The notes: generated from the letters alone by a model not told the origin. Numbered from the stretch's first letter, positions 50-25,991 are shown. The stretch is DNA of 25,991 nucleotides from an uncultured Myxococcales bacterium (GCA_964454015.1 CAYVQF010000041.1:1-25991); one strand, 5' to 3'. Numbers and translations are program-made.

Positions 50-400
50 AGGGGGCGGGGGTGCCGAAGAAAGTTGAAAATATCAAGTACTTCTAAATCA
101 ACGGAATTTCGGCATTGGAGTTTCTTTTTTTCCTGTCAGACAATTTACGACTTGCCTAGGCAGGGCTATTGCCTTAGACTCGACTTCATTGACCTGAACA
201 TCGATGCAGAGAACTTCCACATTTTGCATCGCAGGTTGATTTCGGGAGCCCATGCCGGCCCGCCCCCAGATCCCACCTAAACACTCTCGTAGTCTGTTTC
301 CCGTCACCGTATCCTTCAGTTTTAAAGTGTACATCCTTCCAAGCACCGGCATTGGTCCTCCCTAACCTACGCATCCTGATGGCCACCCTCGCGCGCTGCA
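50..400. other. Anomalously AT-rich, hairpin-dense non-coding segment (candidate structured ncRNA or foreign DNA remnant)
   Basis: GC content is visibly far below the window average. Several local inverted repeats are present: tgccgaa...ttcggca, gttga...tcaac, gatgca...tgcatc, ggca...tgcc. The segment is bounded by complementary G/C tracts, GGGGGCGGG at about 51-59 and CCCGCCCCC at about 262-270. The only ORFs here are short, begin with TTG, use AT-rich codons unlike the rest of the window, and have no SD sequence. Confidence 0.3.
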
Positions 401-5532: not shown

Positions 5533-6459
5533 TCAGCCAATGGCGGCGTAAGAGGTGTTGTCGATGCGGAAGCGCAGCCACTTGGCCATGAACCACGGGG
5601 CGTAGATCCCGACGGTGATGAGGGTCAAGAGGTAGCCCACCAAGAACAACACGAAGAGCTGCCCACCCGTGCCGCCAAAGTTCCCGGCGAGGGTGCGCCC
5701 GGCCACGTGGACCCGGGTGTTGTTGACGAAGAACTGGGTCAATTTCACCGTGAACCACGGCATGTAGATGCCGAAGGTGATGAGGGTCAAGAGGTAGCCC
5801 ACCAAGAAGGTCACGAAGAGGCTGCCACCCGTGCCGACGAAGCTCAACTTGCCGATGGGCTGGTTATTCTCGAGGATCGCCATGTGGTCTTTGATGTAGC
5901 GCTGAATCTTGCACATGAACCACGGCATGTAGATGCCGATGGTGATGAGGGTCAAGAGGTAGCCCACCAGGAAGGTCACGAAGAGCTTGCCCCCCGTGCC
6001 ACCGAAGTGCAGCTTGTACTCCGTGCCATCCTGAGCCCGCGCGCTCGAATGGTCCGCCAAATAAGCGACGAGGTTGCGCATGAACCACGCGCCGTAGATC
6101 CCCAAGGTGAGCAGGGTCAGGAGGTAACCCACCAGGAAGAGCACGAAGAGCTTGCCCCCCGAGCCGACGAAGACCGGCACCAGCGTCCCGCGACGGGTGC
6201 CGGCGATGGTGCTGTTTTCAAAAATGTAACGGGTCATGCGCACCATGAACCACGGCATATAGATGCCGAAGGTGATCAAGGTCAGCAGGTAACCGATGAG
6301 AAAGTTGACGAAGAGACCGCCACCGGTGCCGTGAAACTTGAGCTCCACCTTGCCGCCGCCAGCGCCCATGTGGGGGATGGCACCCATGGCCTGGGTGGGC
6401 GCGTACTCGAGCGCCGGATCCTGCAGATAGGGGTCCTGTCCCCCTGCGATATAGCTCAT
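5533..6459 (-). CDS. Polytopic membrane protein made of five tandem ~55-aa repeats (DUF898/YjgN-like, tentative)
   Basis: Five copies of G(T/S)GGxLFVxFLVGYLLTL(I/L)TxGIYxPWFxxK with variable hydrophilic linkers. GGGAGA SD upstream of the ATG at 6459. The GIYxPW repeat is recalled from memory as a feature of the YjgN family. Confidence 0.75.
   Translation of the reverse strand: MSYIAGGQDPYLQDPALEYAPTQAMGAIPHMGAGGGKVELKFHGTGGGLFVNFLIGYLLTLITFGIYMPWFMVRMTRYIFENSTIAGTRRGTLVPVFVGSGGKLFVLFLVGYLLTLLTLGIYGAWFMRNLVAYLADHSSARAQDGTEYKLHFGGTGGKLFVTFLVGYLLTLITIGIYMPWFMCKIQRYIKDHMAILENNQPIGKLSFVGTGGSLFVTFLVGYLLTLITFGIYMPWFTVKLTQFFVNNTRVHVAGRTLAGNFGGTGGQLFVLFLVGYLLTLITVGIYAPWFMAKWLRFRIDNTSYAAIG
5585..6360. 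repeat. Five tandem ~160-167-bp direct repeats inside the CDS (intragenic duplication)
   Basis: Near-identical cores catgaaccacggcatgtagatgccgaaggtgatgagggtcaagaggtagcccaccaagaag... recur starting near 5591, 5751, 5911, 6080 and 6245. Confidence 0.8.
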
Positions 6460-15418: not shown

Positions 15419-18400
15419 GGCAGCTCCCGGACGCAGCGAAATCCCACACGCGGCAGGCGCGCGCAACCCAGCTCCCCCGACGGCGCTGGCGCCATCATCG
15501 CCGCCTGCCACCAGAACGGGGCGTCATCGCTCGCGCCGCCCATGATCCCAAAGCCGCCGCTGCAGTGCTGGCGCAAGCCCGGCTCACAGCGCACCCACTC
15601 CCCCACTGAGGCGGCCAAATCGAAAATCCCCTCGGGGGTCCGGTTCCACGCCACACTGGCAACCCCACGCTGCCCGCGCAGCGCCTCCTCCCGCGACTCA
15701 CTCAACTCACCGGCGAAGGCATAGTTGCGCCCCTCCAACCCCCGGGCCAAAGCCTCAAAGTCCCGCTCCGTCGGCAAGCGCATCCCCAAACTGGCACAAA
15801 AAGCCTCGGCCTCCAGCGCCCCCACCCCGGTCAAGGGCGCGCCATCCTCGGCACAGAGCGCCACCTGCCCCACGCACGCCGTCGCCGGCGCCTGGCCCGA
15901 CGCGAGCCACCGCCACAAGCCACACGTCACCTCAGTGCTCATCACCTCTAGCCGCGGCCGCTGCCAAGTCTCCCGCGCCAACACCGCCACCCCCGGACGC
16001 GCAAAATGGTGCAGGTCGCGATGAACCCGGCGCAGCCACTCTTGTTGCCGCTCGCTCAGGCCCAGCTCCACTTCGCCCGTCTCGACGCGCAACAGGGGCA
16101 CCTTGTCGGCGATCTCTCTGGGATCCACGTAAGGTAGTTGCCAACGCCCTTCAGCGTAACGCCCTTGACTCAGGGCGTGCGCCTCACCGTCCAAGCCGCG
16201 GCGCAGCACCCACAGTCGTACGGCCACCGCCGCAGCCTCCTCCCGCGCAGGCGGGAGCACGGGACCGGCAGCGCCGAGCACGCGCAGGGACTCACCCCGC
16301 TGCAGGCGCTGCGCCACATCGTCCAGCAGCATGGGCGCGGCGATGACCTCAGCGCCACTGCCGAGGCGCGCCAGCGCCTGCTGCCAGCCTTCCTCGCCCG
16401 CCGCGGGAACGGCCAGGATCAACCCCAGGCCGAGGCGCACCGTCGCGTCATAGACCGCAGCGCTGCGCTTGCTCAACGCCAGCTCGCCAAAGTCGGCGCG
16501 CACCGTCTCGGCCAAGGCCGCAAAGGCCGGCCCCTCGCCGCCCTCTCGCCCCACGATCTGCACCCGGTCCAGCAGGTCGCCCTGGCGCATCAGATCGAAG
16601 AGCGCCCGGGTGTGTGCCCAGTCCAGGGTGAGGTAGCGCGGCCCGCCCGCGGCAAAGGCCGCCTCGATGAAGCCAAGCACCTCTGCGCTCTCCTCTTCAC
16701 CAAGCAGAAGGAGCAAGTCCGCACCGGCGGCGGCCACCCGCTGCGCCATCGCGCGCCGCGCCTCTTCTTTGCCGCCATAGCGCTCGATCTGGGTCTGCAC
16801 TTGGCTCCCAGCCAGGGCGGGCAGCAACTCGGCGAGGAGGCGCTCGCCGCGCTCCCCATCGGGCACCACCACTGCCACCTGGCGCTGTTCTTGAAGTTGC
16901 ACAAAAGCCGCCACGGCGCGCAGCGTGTCCAAGGCATCGCCGCCCGCATAATGCAGGGACGTGTCGCCGCCCACCCCAAGCCCTGGCCCCGGGGCCGCCA
17001 GCCGCAACGGCCCCTCGGCCACGGCGCGCGCCACCAGAGTAGCGCGGCTCGAGGCCAGGGGCAGCACCAGGGCGTCGACCCCCACGTGGTTCACCAAGTG
17101 GGCGGCCGCCCGCGAGCTGCGTTGCCCATCACCACCGTCGTCACAGGAGATGAGCACCAGGGGCGGCGTCAAAGCCGCGCTGTTCAGCCCGCGCACGGCC
17201 AAGCGCGCCACCAGCATGGCCTGTCGCACCTCGCCGTTGGTGCCGTTGTCGATGTGGCCGATGAAGCGGGCCTGATCCACGCCGACGGCGCCTTCGACCA
17301 CGTGGCAGTCTTCAGACTGCCAGGACACACAGGCGCCCTCACGGCACAAGGTCTCACCGGGGCACTCACTGTGGCGGCGACAGGAGGGCGCCCCTTCTGG
17401 GCCCGCGCTGGCTTCGGTCGTTTGCGGGCGCGGTGTGGCGGTCTTCTCGTCACTCAGGAGGCGCAGGCCCACGGCGATGCCCAGAATCCCCAGGGCAAAG
17501 AGGGCCAGGAGCCAGATCCAGGTGCGCCGGGCCGCGCCGCTGTCGTCCGCGCCGGCCGCAGGTGCCGCAAGGGGAGCCGCCCCCGCAGGCGCACGCCCCG
17601 GCGCAGGTGGATCCAAAGAGGGGCGTTCGCCGCGGCGCCAGTCGTCGAGATCGGCCATCATGGTCTCGGCATTGGCGTAGCGCGCGCCGAGGTCCTTGGC
17701 GACGGCACAGCTCAGGATGGCGCGCAGCCCGGGATCGGTGATTTCGGCGGGGATGGCGATGGGGTCGTCGTCGACGTGGCGCAGGGCCACCTCGAAGTTG
17801 CTGTCGCCTTGGATGGCCACGCGGCCGCTCAGGGCCTCGATGAAGACCAGGCCCCAGGAGTAGAGGTCCGACTGGGGGGTCATGGGGCGCTGGCGGAGCT
17901 GTTCCGGCGAGATGTACTGGGGTGTGCCGCGTACTTCTTGCTTGGAGGTCAGGCTGACGTAGCTCTTGTCGCGGGCTTCGACCAGGATGCCGGCGATGCC
18001 GAAATCGAGGACCATGGCGTTGCGGCAGCGGCCCCCGGGGGTGAGCATGATGTTCTGCGGTTTGAGATCGCGGTGGATGATGCCTTGGCGGTGGGCATAG
18101 GCCAGGGCGTCGGCCACTTGGCTCATGAGGTGCACCGCTTCCTCGACGCCGAGCTTGCCCTCACGGCGGATGACATCGTGGAGGGTGTGGCCCTCGATGA
18201 AGTCCAGGACCAGGAAGAGTTCTTTGTCGCCCATGGTCCCGGCGTCGATGAGGCGGACGATGTTGGGATGCTTCAGGCGGGAGATGAGCTTCATCTCGCG
18301 GTTGAAGCGTTTGACCTCGCGCCACACCTCTTCCTTGCGCACGCTCTCCGTGAGGAGAAACTTGACCGCCACGGTTTGGCCCGTGGAGATCTGGGTGGCC

Positions 18401-18492
18401 CTATAGACGACTCCAAAACCGCCTTCGCCGATCTGCTCGTCGAGTCGAAAGCGGTCGTCGATGACCTCACCCTTGCGCGCGCGTCCAGCCAT
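15415..18492 (-). CDS. Receptor-type Ser/Thr protein kinase: kinase domain, single TM, PBP1-like (Leu/Ile/Val-binding-type) ectodomain, C-terminal FGE-sulfatase domain
   Basis: Kinase motifs GEGGFGVVY, VAVK, HRDLKPQNIML, DFG, SPEQ. TM WIWLLALFALGILGIAVGLRLL encoded at about 17462-17527. Cys-rich segment, then a periplasmic-binding-protein-like region. FGE-type C-terminus (VGEWVRCEP..., RVGFRCVRE). ATG at 18492 chosen over the track's TTG at 18591. Confidence 0.85.
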   Translation of the reverse strand: MAGRARKGEVIDDRFRLDEQIGEGGFGVVYRATQISTGQTVAVKFLLTESVRKEEVWREVKRFNREMKLISRLKHPNIVRLIDAGTMGDKELFLVLDFIEGHTLHDVIRREGKLGVEEAVHLMSQVADALAYAHRQGIIHRDLKPQNIMLTPGGRCRNAMVLDFGIAGILVEARDKSYVSLTSKQEVRGTPQYISPEQLRQRPMTPQSDLYSWGLVFIEALSGRVAIQGDSNFEVALRHVDDDPIAIPAEITDPGLRAILSCAVAKDLGARYANAETMMADLDDWRRGERPSLDPPAPGRAPAGAAPLAAPAAGADDSGAARRTWIWLLALFALGILGIAVGLRLLSDEKTATPRPQTTEASAGPEGAPSCRRHSECPGETLCREGACVSWQSEDCHVVEGAVGVDQARFIGHIDNGTNGEVRQAMLVARLAVRGLNSAALTPPLVLISCDDGGDGQRSSRAAAHLVNHVGVDALVLPLASSRATLVARAVAEGPLRLAAPGPGLGVGGDTSLHYAGGDALDTLRAVAAFVQLQEQRQVAVVVPDGERGERLLAELLPALAGSQVQTQIERYGGKEEARRAMAQRVAAAGADLLLLLGEEESAEVLGFIEAAFAAGGPRYLTLDWAHTRALFDLMRQGDLLDRVQIVGREGGEGPAFAALAETVRADFGELALSKRSAAVYDATVRLGLGLILAVPAAGEEGWQQALARLGSGAEVIAAPMLLDDVAQRLQRGESLRVLGAAGPVLPPAREEAAAVAVRLWVLRRGLDGEAHALSQGRYAEGRWQLPYVDPREIADKVPLLRVETGEVELGLSERQQEWLRRVHRDLHHFARPGVAVLARETWQRPRLEVMSTEVTCGLWRWLASGQAPATACVGQVALCAEDGAPLTGVGALEAEAFCASLGMRLPTERDFEALARGLEGRNYAFAGELSESREEALRGQRGVASVAWNRTPEGIFDLAASVGEWVRCEPGLRQHCSGGFGIMGGASDDAPFWWQAAMMAPAPSGELGCARLPRVGFRCVRELP

Positions 18493-22736: not shown

Positions 22737-23872
22737 GAGACACATCAGGCGCTCCACCCGGTCTCCACCGAGACCTCCCGCTGGCTCCCTACACCACCCT
22801 CGGTGTCGGTGGCGCAGCCAAGTACTGGCTCGCCCCGACCAGCGTCACGGCGGCGCGCGAGGCTTGCGCGTGGGCTCACGCGCAGGCTCTCCCTCTCTTC
22901 ATCCTCGGGCAGGGTTCCAACCTCGTCGTCTGTGACGACGGTTTCTCCGGCCTGGTCCTGCACCCGGCTTTTGCTGGGATCAGCACCTGCGGCCAGGAGG
23001 ACAGGGACACGCTGGTCGTCGCCGAAGCCGGCGTGGACTGGGATGGGCTGGTGGCCTGGAGTGTGGAGCAAGCTCTGGGAGGACTCGAGACTTTGAGCGG
23101 CATCCCCGGGCAAGTGGGCGCCGCACCCGTGCAGAACATCGGCGCCTACGGCAACGAGGTGGGTGAGCGCATCGCTTGGGTCGAGGCCCTCGACCTCCAG
23201 CGCGGCACCATGACGACCCTGGCGCACGACGCCTGCGGCTTCTCCTACCGCAGCAGCCACTTCAAAGGGCCCTGGGCTGGGCGTTACCTCATCACGCGCG
23301 TCGCCTTGCGTCTGCCGCCAGCGGCACCACTGCGCCCGCACTACGCTGAGCTCGGCGCAACCCTCGGTGCGGGCGATCACCAGCCGGAGGTGGTCCGGGA
23401 GGCCGTGCTGGGCATCCGGCGCCGCAAGGCCATGCTCCACGACCCCCACGACCCCAACAGCCGCAGCGCCGGCTCCTTCTTTACCAACCCCATCATCGAT
23501 CAGGTCACGGCCGACGAGATCTTGGCGCGCAGCCAGCCAGCGCCACCGACCCTACACCGCACGCCCGATGGGCGTTGGAAAATCTCGGCCGCCTGGCTCA
23601 TCGAGCAGGCCGGCTTCCACCGTGGACACCAACACGGCCGGGCGGGACTCTCTGGGCGCCACTGCCTGGCGCTGATCAACCGCGGCGAAGCCACGGCCTG
23701 CGAAATCCTTGATCTTGCGCGGCAAATACGCCAGGCTGTGCGGGACATTTTTGCAGTGGACTTGACCCCTGAACCCGTCTGGCTCGACCAGCACGGTGCG
23801 GGGCCCATGCCCTTGGACGACAACCCTACACGAGGAGTTTGCGATGGCAGAATTGAAGGTCAACGTCGGTGA
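22733..23872 (+). CDS. murB: UDP-N-acetylenolpyruvoylglucosamine reductase (UDP-N-acetylmuramate dehydrogenase)
   Basis: [13 protein letters not shown] (compare E. coli LKPWNTFGID), [35 protein letters not shown]. There is no ATG/GTG after the pgm stop in this frame. The only canonical candidate is TTG at 22733, overlapping the pgm TGA (cTTTGA); CTG at 22781 is the alternative. The 3' end overlaps the next gene by 29 bp. Confidence 0.7.
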
Positions 23873-25367
23873 GTGGGTGCAGAAGAACGCCGTGATCTAC
23901 CCCAATAAGTGCGCCGTCAAGTCAGGCGAGCAAGCTTTCACCTACACCGAGATGGCGGAGCGGATGCACCGCATCGCCAACGGACTCAAAGGGCTGGGGC
24001 TGGCCAAAGGCGACCGGGTCATGCTCTATCTCCTGAACGGCATCGAGTACGTCGAAGCCGTCTTCGCTTGCTCCGCCATCGGCCTCATCGCCGTGCCCCT
24101 CAACTGGCGCCTGGGCCAACCCGAGATGGCCTTCATCGTCGAAGACTGCGGGCCCAAAGTGATGATCCACCACGCCGCCTTTGCCAAACGGGCCAAAGCG
24201 CTCCAGGAAGGCGCCAAGCATGAGCTACACCTCATCGAGGTCAAAGAAGGGGGCGGCGCCTCGGCCTACGAGTCCTTCATCGCCGCCGCGGCCCCCGACA
24301 ACGCCATCGATCCCGCCGTCGGCGGCGACGATCCCCACCTCATCATGTACACCGCCGGCACCACGGGCGATCCCAAGGGCGTGGTCCTGAGCCACGCCAA
24401 CTGCTTCTGGCAGTCCGTCAACGGCTGGGCCCTCGGGGTCTCGCCCAGCGCCATCTCACTGGTGCTCTTGCCCCTCTTCCACGTCGGCGGCCTCAACGGC
24501 TCGGTCACGCCCATGATTCACATCGGCGCCACCTGCATCCTGCCACCCAAGTTCGACGTCGAGGACACCTTGCGCACCATGGAGCGCGAGCAGGTGACCG
24601 GCATGGTCGCCGTGCCCGCGGTCTACCAGATGATGTACGAGCACCCCCTCTTTGCCACCACCGATCTGTCGCGGATCGAGGCCTTCATCTCCGGTGGCGC
24701 CCCCTTGAGTTACGACCTCATCTCCAAGTACCACGAACGCGGCCTCGAATTCCGTCAGGGTTACGGTCTGACCGAGACCTCGCCCGGCGCCACGGGCATG
24801 GGCCCCGGAGAGTGCCTCAATAAGGCCGGCACGGCGGGCCGCCCCTGTCTCTACGTCGACATCCGCATCGTCGACGACAACGATCAGCCCCTGCCCATGG
24901 GCCAAGCAGGCGAGGTGGTGATCCGCGGCCCCAACGTCATGCTCGGCTACTGGCAACGCCCCGAAGAGACGGCCAAGGCCATCCGCGACGGCTGGTTCCA
25001 CTCCGGGGACATCGGCTACCTCGACGCGGACAACTTCCTGACCCTGGTCGATCGCAAGAAAGACATGATCATCTCGGGCGGCGAGAATGTTTACCCCGCC
25101 GAAATCGAAAAACTCCTCGCCGGGCACCCGGACATCCAAGACGTGGCGGTCGTCGCGCGCCCTGACGCCAAGTGGGGGGAGGTCCCCGTGGCGGTGGTCG
25201 TGGCCCGGGCTGGCGCGGCGCTGAGCGCCGACAGTGTGCTGGAGATGTGCAACGCCCACCTGGCCCGCTACAAGGTCCCCAAGGCGGTCATCTTCAAAGA
25301 CAGCCTGCCGCGCAACGCCGCAGGCAAGCTGGTCAAAGCGGAGATCCGCAAGATGGTCAACGACTAA
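23844..25367 (+). CDS. AMP-dependent acyl-CoA synthetase/ligase (FadD-like)
   Basis: GAGGAG SD 6 nt before the ATG at 23844. AMP-binding motifs MYTAGTTGDPKGVVLSH, GYGLTETS, WFHSGDIGYLD, ISGGENVYPAEIE, PRNAAGKLVK. Confidence 0.85.
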   Translation: MAELKVNVGEWVQKNAVIYPNKCAVKSGEQAFTYTEMAERMHRIANGLKGLGLAKGDRVMLYLLNGIEYVEAVFACSAIGLIAVPLNWRLGQPEMAFIVEDCGPKVMIHHAAFAKRAKALQEGAKHELHLIEVKEGGGASAYESFIAAAAPDNAIDPAVGGDDPHLIMYTAGTTGDPKGVVLSHANCFWQSVNGWALGVSPSAISLVLLPLFHVGGLNGSVTPMIHIGATCILPPKFDVEDTLRTMEREQVTGMVAVPAVYQMMYEHPLFATTDLSRIEAFISGGAPLSYDLISKYHERGLEFRQGYGLTETSPGATGMGPGECLNKAGTAGRPCLYVDIRIVDDNDQPLPMGQAGEVVIRGPNVMLGYWQRPEETAKAIRDGWFHSGDIGYLDADNFLTLVDRKKDMIISGGENVYPAEIEKLLAGHPDIQDVAVVARPDAKWGEVPVAVVVARAGAALSADSVLEMCNAHLARYKVPKAVIFKDSLPRNAAGKLVKAEIRKMVND

Positions 25368-25375
25368 GCGCCCTG

Positions 25376-25415
25376 AGGGGAGGGCCGCGCCCCCTAGGCC
25401 GCCCCTCCCGATCCG
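25376..25415. terminator. Imperfect GC-rich inverted repeat between convergent gene ends (possible bidirectional terminator)
   Basis: gaGGGGAGGGCCGCGcccctagGCCGCCCCTCCCg read directly. No T-run. Confidence 0.2.
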
Positions 25416-25431
25416 TTAGGTGGCGCCACTT

Positions 25432-25991
25432 TCAGCGCGTGCGCCCCCGTTGGAGGCCCTTGACCCGCTTGGGCGCACAGTCCTGGCCAGGAGGACAAGC
25501 GGCCTCGTCCTCGTCGTCTGCTTGGTCAGGATCCTCACTTTCTTCACCCTCTTGTGGGGCATCCTGACCTTTGGTCTGCCCTGGGCGCTTGATCTTACTG
25601 CCACGCTCGCGCGCCGGCGCCGGGTCAGCGGCCTTCTCGTTGCGCTCCCGTTCCAGGCGCTCCCGCTCGGCCTGCTCGTTGCGCTCCCGTTCTTTGCGCT
25701 CGCGTTCGGCCTGGGCTGCCCGTTCATGCTCCTGACGATCCCGCGCAGCCTTCTCGTTGCGCTCGCGCTCCTGGCGTTCCTTCTCGGCCTTCTCGTTGCG
25801 CTCCCGTTCTTTGCGCTCGCGTTCGGCCTGGCTTGCCCGTTCATGCTCCTGACGATCCCGCTCGGCCTTCTCGTTGCGCTCGCGCTCCTGGCGTTCCCGC
25901 TCGGCCTTCTCGTTGCGCTCCCGTTCTTTGCGCTCACGTTCGGCCTGGCTTGCCCGTTCATGCTCCTGACGATCCCGCTCGGCCTTCTCGT
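25432..25991 (-). CDS. E/R/K-rich tandem-repeat protein, C-terminal part (5' end lies beyond the window); a different frame from ORF-track 25416..25961
   Basis: Minus-strand frame with codon first bases at positions divisible by 3 is open from the window edge to the TGA at 25434-25432. It encodes ...RDRQEHERASQAERERKERERNEKAEKERQERERNEKAA... repeats, then ...EGEESEDPDQADDEDEAACPPGQDCAPKRVKGLQRGRTR*. Arg is encoded by CGN in this frame. The track's frame needs rare AGG/AGA codons and yields low-complexity SATRRP text. The frame contains no ATG/GTG/TTG, which would explain why the ORF finder did not list it. Confidence 0.55.
   Translation of the reverse strand, partial: EKAERDRQEHERASQAERERKERERNEKAERERQERERNEKAERDRQEHERASQAERERKERERNEKAEKERQERERNEKAARDRQEHERAAQAERERKERERNEQAERERLERERNEKAADPAPARERGSKIKRPGQTKGQDAPQEGEESEDPDQADDEDEAACPPGQDCAPKRVKGLQRGRTR
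25615..25991. repeat. 120-bp tandem direct repeats (at least 3 full units, continuing past window end)
   Basis: The unit ...cgttcatgctcctgacgatcccgc(t/g)cggccttctcgttgcgctcgcgctcctggcgttcc... recurs at about 25726, 25846 and 25966 with few substitutions. Confidence 0.8.

Follow-up and report, generated by a model that had tools for sequence, protein, structure and literature searches.

Tandem repeats at a contig end encode the tail of a putatively exported DUF6600 protein and probably form an ER/K-type single alpha-helix

Among the described systems closest to the protein analysed here, Braun's lipoprotein Lpp is a 58-aa trimeric coiled coil whose C-terminal lysine is linked to peptidoglycan. 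Single alpha-helices (SAHs) of the ER/K type, e.g. those of myosin VI, myosin X and INCENP or the de novo AEEEXXX designs, are described as acting between domains, either as semi-rigid spacers or as constant-force springs (PMC4183817, PMC4571873, PMC5347031, PMC5378345). [quoted passage not shown] For DUF6600 (PF20245), the family to which we assign the present protein, a literature search found no papers and no experimental data on any member. The DUF6600 family and the ER/K helix type are both already known as such; what we add is modest, namely a single lineage in which the tail of a DUF6600 protein appears to join the two, with a varying number of repeats.

The window analysed here is the whole 25,991-nt contig of an uncultured Myxococcales bacterium (GCA_964454015.1 CAYVQF010000041.1:1-25991), and its right end cuts through a repeat-rich gene on the minus strand (Table 1). 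A first-pass annotation had proposed a frame rich in E, R and K at this place, made of 120-bp repeats encoding 40 aa each. Indeed, the frame is open for 185 codons from position 25989 to the TGA at 25434-25432, so that no stop had been missed in the hand translation, and it reads ...ERERNEKAERERQERERNEKAERDRQEHERASQAERERK..., followed by ADPAPARERGSKIKRPGQTKGQDAPQEGEESEDPDQADDEDEAACPPGQDCAPKRVKGLQRGRTR*. The period, however, had to be corrected: TRF reports an array of 3.1 copies of 117 bp (93% matches, score 642) with a sub-period of 39 bp (9.3 copies, 68% matches), which corresponds to a unit of 39 aa (3 x 13 aa) instead of 40 aa. At 93% identity, the 117-bp units must stem from recent tandem duplication. 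The 13-aa subunits are of the types ERERNEKAERERQ, ERERNEKAERDRQ and EHERASQAERERK, and the consensus sequences of the three types are ERERNEKAE(R/K)ERQ, ERERNEKA(E/A)RDRQ and EHERA(S/A)QAERERK. Scanning the whole window for a 24-nt core of the unit (up to 3 mismatches) gave six occurrences, all of them between 25630 and 25926, with 0 expected. The array degenerates toward ERERNEKAADPAP and is followed by a non-repetitive tail, in which both the acidic patch and the CPPGQDC segment mentioned in the first-pass annotation are found at the positions given in Table 1, together with a Pro/basic stretch; the protein terminates in ...QRGRTR, with three Arg among the last five residues (RGRTR). In the spacer that separates this gene from the convergent acyl-CoA synthetase gene, a search for a consensus terminator found none, the inverted repeat (-35.5 kcal/mol) folds no better than shuffled sequences (z = -0.55), and an Rfam search of 25000-25991 gave no match.

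Table 1. Features at the right end of the window (nucleotide positions) and segments of the 445-aa full-length allele (residue numbers)
Feature	Position	Strand	Basis or remark
Acyl-CoA synthetase gene, convergent neighbour	23844..25367	+	other side of the 64-bp spacer
Spacer, 64 bp, G+C-rich inverted repeat inside	25368..25431	.	between convergent genes
Listed 181-aa ORF, SATRRP-type text, shadow frame	25416..25961	-	+1-shifted; codon score; no Pfam match
Antisense open frame, hydrophobic LLVALPFFALAFGL-type text, shadow ORF	25420..25991	+	runs off the window; no Pfam match
3' part of the gene	25432..25991	-	last 185 codons and TGA; 5' part past the window end
C-terminal tail, 66 aa, non-repetitive, predicted disordered	25435..25632	-	translation; pLDDT about 60 or lower
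Basic end KRVKGLQRGRTR of the 66-aa tail	25435-25470	-	translation
CPPGQDC, two-Cys motif of the 66-aa tail	25477-25497	-	translation
Acidic patch in the 66-aa tail	25504-25551	-	translation
Tandem array, coding for the predicted ER/K-type helix	25629..25991	-	TRF and subunit layout; window end cuts the array
Signal-peptide helix	residues 2-13		AlphaFold2, 445-aa allele
Disordered tether, about 40 aa	residues 15-55		pLDDT below 50
Trp-rich beta-hairpin domain (DUF6600 and extension)	residues about 56-220		pLDDT above 90
Short helix	residues 241-265		pLDDT about 60-70
Long E/R/K-rich helix	residues 272-379		pLDDT about 90 or higher
Disordered tail	residues 380-445		low pLDDT

The identity of the gene emerged from other assemblies. 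When the 185-aa fragment was used as query, a word-indexed protein search gave nothing at E <= 0.001 among 8000 candidates, the candidate list probably having been filled by E/R/K words. An exhaustive phmmer search with the same query retrieved a protein of 445 aa (P0001; E = 2.7e-79, 93% identity), residues 265-445 of which align with residues 4-185 of the query. P0001 is encoded in contigs L082 and L083 from two sister ENA samples and in L091 from one JGI metagenome (the assemblies carrying the repeats are ENA ERZ27252304, ERZ27252295 and ERZ27252296 and JGI 3300033170). In all three contigs the E/R/K frame belongs to a single unbroken ORF, which leads from a GTG start through a signal peptide and DUF6600 into the repeats; the N-terminus and the domain context are thereby found, and the window holds the last 185 aa of a protein that starts past its end, just as the first-pass annotation had assumed. 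P0001 matches the Pfam model of DUF6600 (PF20245) with 86.3 bits (cut-off 27, E = 1.7e-24, residues 66-158), a domain that falls outside the window and is tied to it through the nucleotide sequence shared with L082 and L083. Across the intergenic spacer, the tail and about 2.3 repeat units, no nucleotide differences separate the window from L082, L083 and a further contig, L001 (ENA ERZ27252304), and L082 has the acyl-CoA synthetase of the window as its convergent downstream gene. L001 is identical to the window over the acyl-CoA synthetase gene, too, and likewise ends inside the repeats; on this identical contig the gene caller picked the E/R/K frame. From these identities we conclude that the coding sequence in the window represents the 3' end of a stand-alone gene encoding a DUF6600 protein with a predicted export signal, and we regard the gene, its frame and its family assignment as nearly certain. 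The annotation that would fit is 'DUF6600 domain-containing lipoprotein, C-terminal fragment'.

Pfam gave no match for the three candidate products of the region, since the window contains only the low-complexity part of the protein, and an exact look-up of the window's partial products in the protein collection found them absent. The tail peptide had no relative among the GTDB species genomes. The neighbouring acyl-CoA synthetase reached a best identity of 40% there, so the organism seems to have no close representative in that set. Those relatives of the neighbouring vault-protein gene and of the closest DUF6600 proteins that carry a name belong to Myxococcota, and the source would be a Myxococcota-like diderm. 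The locus is flanked by a Ser/Thr kinase gene (upstream) and the acyl-CoA synthetase gene. When the neighbourhoods of four relatives were compared, the kinase proved specific to this locus and no conserved partner was found, and gene context thus gives no hint of function.

A family search yielded 98 proteins of 171-454 aa, all of them with DUF6600, from Myxococcota, Ignavibacteriota and Bacteroidota, and the present case also adds to the description of a widespread, putatively exported family across these phyla. A signal peptide, a Trp-rich domain (invariant W/G/P, H-Y-G) and a charged low-complexity tail were present in 12 of the 12 relatives inspected in full. In the tails of the 98 members, D/E/K/R make up 45% at the median, and most of these tails are rich in Arg with a net positive charge; P0001, with 59% charged residues in its tail, lies at the top of the family range. 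At least three K/R among the last five residues occur in 71 of the 98 members (mean 2.77, compared with 1.22 expected from tail composition). P0001 follows the family plan in that it shares the signal peptide, the Trp-rich domain, a charged low-complexity tail of ~150-230 aa and the basic C-terminal cluster. It differs in its near-identical 39-aa units, which lie in an uninterrupted predicted ER/K helix with a net charge of about 0, and in the acidic patch and two-Cys motif after the helix, whereas the tails of most relatives are Pro/Gly-containing, Arg-rich and net positive, vary in length and have no long helix. Only five of the 97 other members possess a P/G-free ER/K-like stretch of at least 80 aa. 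Tandem repeats of other kinds are found in the tails of P0034 (PSR-type) and P0076 (a 13-aa unit, ERRMENQRPQGNQ, present three times), and the closest relatives, with 39-42% identity in the domain, have tails that are either PSR-repeat or short and R/H-rich. Judged by this comparison, the repeats of the window represent the charged tail found throughout the family in a form that is peculiar to one lineage, was duplicated recently and is unusually regular. NCBIfam gave no match, and the DUF6600 beta domain had no significant structural match in the PDB.

We built a full-length AlphaFold2 model of P0001 with the 98-sequence family alignment (Table 1). Its order of parts invites comparison with TolA and TonB, as the tails of DUF6600 proteins range from helical to disordered much like domain II of those proteins. 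Here, however, the order is reversed, with the predicted anchor and the globular domain first and the helix last; there is no folded C-terminal domain, and in place of tol/exb neighbours a Ser/Thr kinase and an acyl-CoA synthetase are encoded. Membership in the TolA/TonB group was considered and rejected on the C-terminal domain III and on the neighbours.

The composition and charge pattern of the repeat part point to a particular type of helix. Its 119 residues comprise 33% E, 27% R and 8% K (68% E+R+K) as well as 12% A, with a single hydrophobic residue and neither Pro nor Gly. Unlike charges are spaced at i,i+4 in 49 cases (28.9 +/- 4.0 in shuffles; z = 5.0), and like charges at this spacing are found in only 3 cases (28.2 +/- 4.0 in shuffles; z = -6.3). 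At i,i+3, unlike charges are slightly below chance (20 versus 29.2 in shuffles; z = -2.3), and the presumed salt-bridge network would therefore depend on i,i+4 alone. A plain (ER)n repeat places only like-charge pairs at i+4; in the 13-mer, the fixed uncharged positions reset the register. AlphaFold2 run on the single sequence draws one straight helix (residues 2-120, pLDDT above 90). Since the charges are patterned in this way, no hydrophobic seam is present and the model agrees, we think it likely that the repeat segment is a single alpha-helix of the ER/K type, which bears out in silico what the first-pass annotation had suggested; such a helix would be monomeric and stable.

Known ER/K SAHs resemble this segment in the content of E+R+K, the absence of a hydrophobic seam, the strong excess of unlike charges at i,i+4 and the prediction of a long isolated helix. 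This likeness is compositional and not one of homology, the other phmmer matches being unrelated multidomain proteins with similar repeats. There are also clear differences: the 13-aa unit alternates E and R, as opposed to the E4K4 and AEEEKRK types; the i,i+3 pairs are unfavourable; and the present protein is bacterial and probably exported, in contrast to the cytoplasmic eukaryotic examples. Moreover, the helix does not appear to bridge two domains, because no folded domain follows it.

Among the readings that compete with a single helix, the one that survives best is a disordered polyampholyte, i.e. nothing but a charged low-complexity tail in which the repeats are a neutral expansion. The tails of the relatives, which are low in complexity, Pro/Gly-containing, variable in length and net positive, would fit such a picture, as would the unrelated tandem repeats in the tails of P0034 (PSR-type) and P0076 (13-aa); in addition, AlphaFold2 can over-predict helices in sequences of this kind, and a preprint reports confident helices drawn for some disordered regions that fold conditionally (bioRxiv 10.1101/2022.02.18.481080). 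Nevertheless, we consider this reading unlikely, as like-charge pairs at i,i+4 are nearly removed (3 versus 28 expected) over 119 residues free of Pro and Gly, a charge pattern as helix-stabilising selection would give. A disordered tail of this sort might, for example, bind anionic polymers or act as an entropic bristle.

How a single ER/K helix could work in the context of the whole protein can be outlined as follows. The signal peptide would export the protein, and the lipobox residue Cys15 would anchor it in the envelope. The N-terminus MRKLWVLVALLGVSC matches a PROSITE-type lipobox pattern, the Gly at the -3 position being atypical; the same pattern is matched by six other members, including the closest relatives P0034 and P0035. 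Lipid anchoring at this Cys is probable, and we infer that the protein is lipidated and situated in the cell envelope. The aromatic-rich beta domain may bind an envelope component. In the tail, the fixed uncharged residues would set nearly every charge opposite an unlike charge at i+4 and so generate a stiff, monomeric, salt-bridged helix, which could keep the tail's acidic/Cys/basic end well apart from the beta domain. We tentatively see the tail as an extended charged envelope arm, a helical form of the charged tail common to the family, though our confidence in this particular step falls short of even. Taken together, the blend of gene and family, single helix and envelope arm is in our view the best overall explanation and one we hold with good confidence. 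A charged arm with a basic tip seems likelier than a fixed-length ruler, since the tails of most relatives are flexible and variable in length; a defined length is unlikely to be the conserved function, given that only the five members counted above have a long P/G-free ER/K-like stretch. It is improbable that DUF6600 proteins represent an unrecognised class of envelope tethers, in which the beta domain and the basic C-terminus would bind different layers and the tail, turned in this Myxococcota lineage into a rigid ER/K helix, would serve as an exported, copy-number-variable ruler. In such a tether, gain or loss of 39-aa units between strains would tune the length in steps of ~5.9 nm.

The number of repeats does seem to vary, as the first-pass annotation had expected. 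L082 and L083 enter the repeats from ...FKPGARKEKAEQERQ and have two EHERA-type units, and L091 encodes the same protein; the 445-aa form is thus represented by three independent assemblies. The window continues further upstream into an extra EHERASQAERERK subunit and a ...NEKAERDRQ subunit before it ends. Corresponding subunits are also distinguished by SNPs (ERERQ/NEK against EKERQ/NDK), which set the window and L001 apart from the other contigs. From the alignment of these subunits, the allele of the window and L001 has at least one 39-aa unit more than the 445-aa allele, which would give a protein of at least 484 aa. At 0.15 nm per residue, the helix would measure ~16 nm for the 445-aa allele and reach 22 nm or more for that of the window, each unit contributing ~5.9 nm. 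We read the difference as real, that is, as a copy-number polymorphism within one population seen through short-read assemblies; it would also explain why both contigs with the longer form break exactly inside the repeats. Should helix length matter for function, its effect in the envelope could be examined directly on these natural alleles. A scan of JGI data for the window-specific repeat junction gave 0 matches, and a scan for the tail motif returned only the already known 2.8-kb contig and no further alleles.

One could object that short-read metagenome assembly created the extra unit or the repeat structure as an artefact, given that the window and L001 both stop inside the repeats and that the units are 93% identical. 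We find this improbable: five contigs, which stem from at least four samples and two pipelines (ENA k141 assemblies and JGI), contain the same repeats, and since the SNPs that tell the two forms apart are no more than ~50 nt away from one another, which reads and 141-mers can span, each of the two junctions must exist in the reads.

As an alternative to the single helix, the first-pass annotation had also named coiled-coil rulers, and a dimeric or trimeric coiled coil that sets envelope spacing, as in Lpp, could be imagined for a long predicted helix in a predicted lipoprotein, Lpp itself being an established lipid-anchored helical ruler. The repeat region lacks what such a structure needs, and this option is very improbable and was dropped: whichever heptad register is chosen, no more than 3% of its a/d positions are hydrophobic (no more than 18% when Ala is counted), Ala and Leu are scattered over all sides of the helical wheel (resultant 0.13), the 119 residues include a single hydrophobic one, and the C-terminal residue is Arg instead of the peptidoglycan-linking Lys of Lpp. 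The likeness to Lpp consists in an N-terminal lipid anchor (predicted here) followed by a helical rod able to set an envelope distance; the differences are the missing heptad core, the Arg end and a large beta domain between anchor and helix. Assignment to the Lpp-like rulers accordingly fails on the heptad a/d core and on the C-terminal Lys.

Finally, the preference for the E/R/K frame over other frames deserves comment, as four of the six frames are free of stops across 25435-25991 in this DNA of 65% G+C and an open frame alone hence proves nothing. Using a codon table trained on the 15 long ORFs of the window with the expected GC3 pattern, we obtained log-likelihoods per codon of +0.30 for the E/R/K frame (training genes +0.18 to +0.68) and -0.57 for the 181-aa ORF given in the mechanical ORF list. 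The antisense frame on the plus strand scored +0.20 overall and +0.31 in the repeats, with a GC3 of 0.84-0.85. Codon usage thus excludes the listed ORF and does not exclude the antisense frame; between the latter and the E/R/K frame, it is homology that decides, and it does so for E/R/K. If the plus-strand frame from 25420 truly encoded a hydrophobic membrane protein with repeats, the E/R/K frame being its antisense shadow, the comparable codon score and GC3 and the lack of stops, up to a length of 366 aa in L082, would be accounted for. In L082, however, this frame runs backwards through the DUF6600-coding part without any family match of its own and is on that ground a shadow ORF, while the sense product has 98 homologues and a Pfam match. 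Furthermore, the exhaustive phmmer search retrieved the sense-strand protein complete with its N-terminal domain, the sense gene was called by gene callers in three sources, and a hydrophobic open antisense frame would be expected from GAG/CGC/AAG-rich coding in high-G+C DNA, all of which makes a plus-strand gene scarcely credible.

The listed ORF as the real gene, with ATG starts inside the window, can be set aside with the least hesitation: it is open, has four in-frame ATGs (the E/R/K frame has none, so that the only ATGs do lie in the listed ORF, as had been noticed) and a high GC3 of 0.84, but its codon score lies far outside the range of the window's long genes, 29 of its 36 Arg codons (81%) are AGA/AGG compared with 4% in those genes, it has no Pfam match, it was passed over by the gene caller on the identical contig, and it would sit wholly inside a gene with a conserved domain and homologues. 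In the E/R/K frame, by comparison, all 39 Arg codons are CGN and none is AGA/AGG. The first-pass annotation was therefore right to call the listed ORF a shifted frame and the E/R/K frame the gene, the latter being supported by its codon score, by the choice of the gene caller on L001 and by its continuity with DUF6600. The locus is a case of a mechanical ORF list choosing the wrong frame in high-G+C repeat DNA, the true gene being cut off where the contig breaks inside that gene's own repeats. Between the repeat units, in the E/R/K frame, variable columns number 12, 8 and 7 at codon positions 3, 2 and 1, respectively (small numbers).

The DUF6600 proteins, to which the charged repeat protein at the window edge belongs, often end in a cluster of basic residues. 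In the alignment of 98 such proteins, the last five residues hold at least three K/R in 71, usually as ...ERRR, ...RKR or ...RGR, and across these 98 proteins the cluster is far commoner than the composition of the tail predicts. The cluster may be conserved as a signal or anchor at the C-terminus; its counterpart in the window is listed in the table. Over the repeat and tail (25435-25991), four of the six reading frames are free of stop codons, and the antisense frame reaches a codon usage score on par with those of real genes. In G+C-rich repeat DNA, both ORF length and codon scores can therefore mislead.

On contig L082, the full-length DUF6600 gene is preceded on its own strand, at a distance of 92 bp, by a gene for a Ser/Thr protein kinase. 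Read by eye, the translation of the kinase gene shows a hydrophobic stretch that resembles a transmembrane segment, and its C-terminal part is rich in Cys. No such kinase-DUF6600 pairing was seen at the examined loci of DUF6600 relatives.

Long tandem repeats of the AERER/KERE type also occur in P0002-P0006, unrelated bacterial multidomain proteins which phmmer matched to the tail in the window, and whose sequences, read by eye, resemble a caspase, a trypsin or a TIR domain in the N-terminal part. Bacteria seem to have arrived at charged helical repeats of this type as a linker repeatedly and by convergence.

Features in the window and on contig L082
Feature	Coordinates	Strand	Remarks
Membrane-protein gene, DUF898/DUF4234/DUF6693	5533..6459	-	Tandem repeats inside at 5587-6172
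974-aa ORF	12170..15094	+	Pfam MVP_shoulder (1.2e-19), Vault_3 (4e-9)
Large Ser/Thr kinase fused to Peripla_BP_6 and FGE-sulfatase domains	15415..18492	-	Pfam annotation on identical contig L001
Counterpart of DUF6600 basic C-terminal cluster	25435-25470		
Ser/Thr protein kinase gene, 597 aa	L082 8115-9908 (off-window)	+	Directly upstream of full-length DUF6600 gene

Elsewhere in the window, the 974-aa ORF encodes, judged by its matches to the two vault families, a bacterial protein homologous to the major vault protein of eukaryotes. It has at least 280 relatives; among the matches listed, identities range from 53 to 68% (apart from one 100% identical JGI copy), the named relatives are for the most part Myxococcota/Polyangia, and some are already annotated as 'major vault protein'. 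The fusion of a Ser/Thr kinase with Peripla_BP_6 and FGE-sulfatase domains is probably a typical Myxococcota architecture. The repeats within the DUF898/DUF4234/DUF6693 gene have a unit of 165 bp (55 aa), reported by TRF as two overlapping rows of 2.6 copies each with 77-78% matches.
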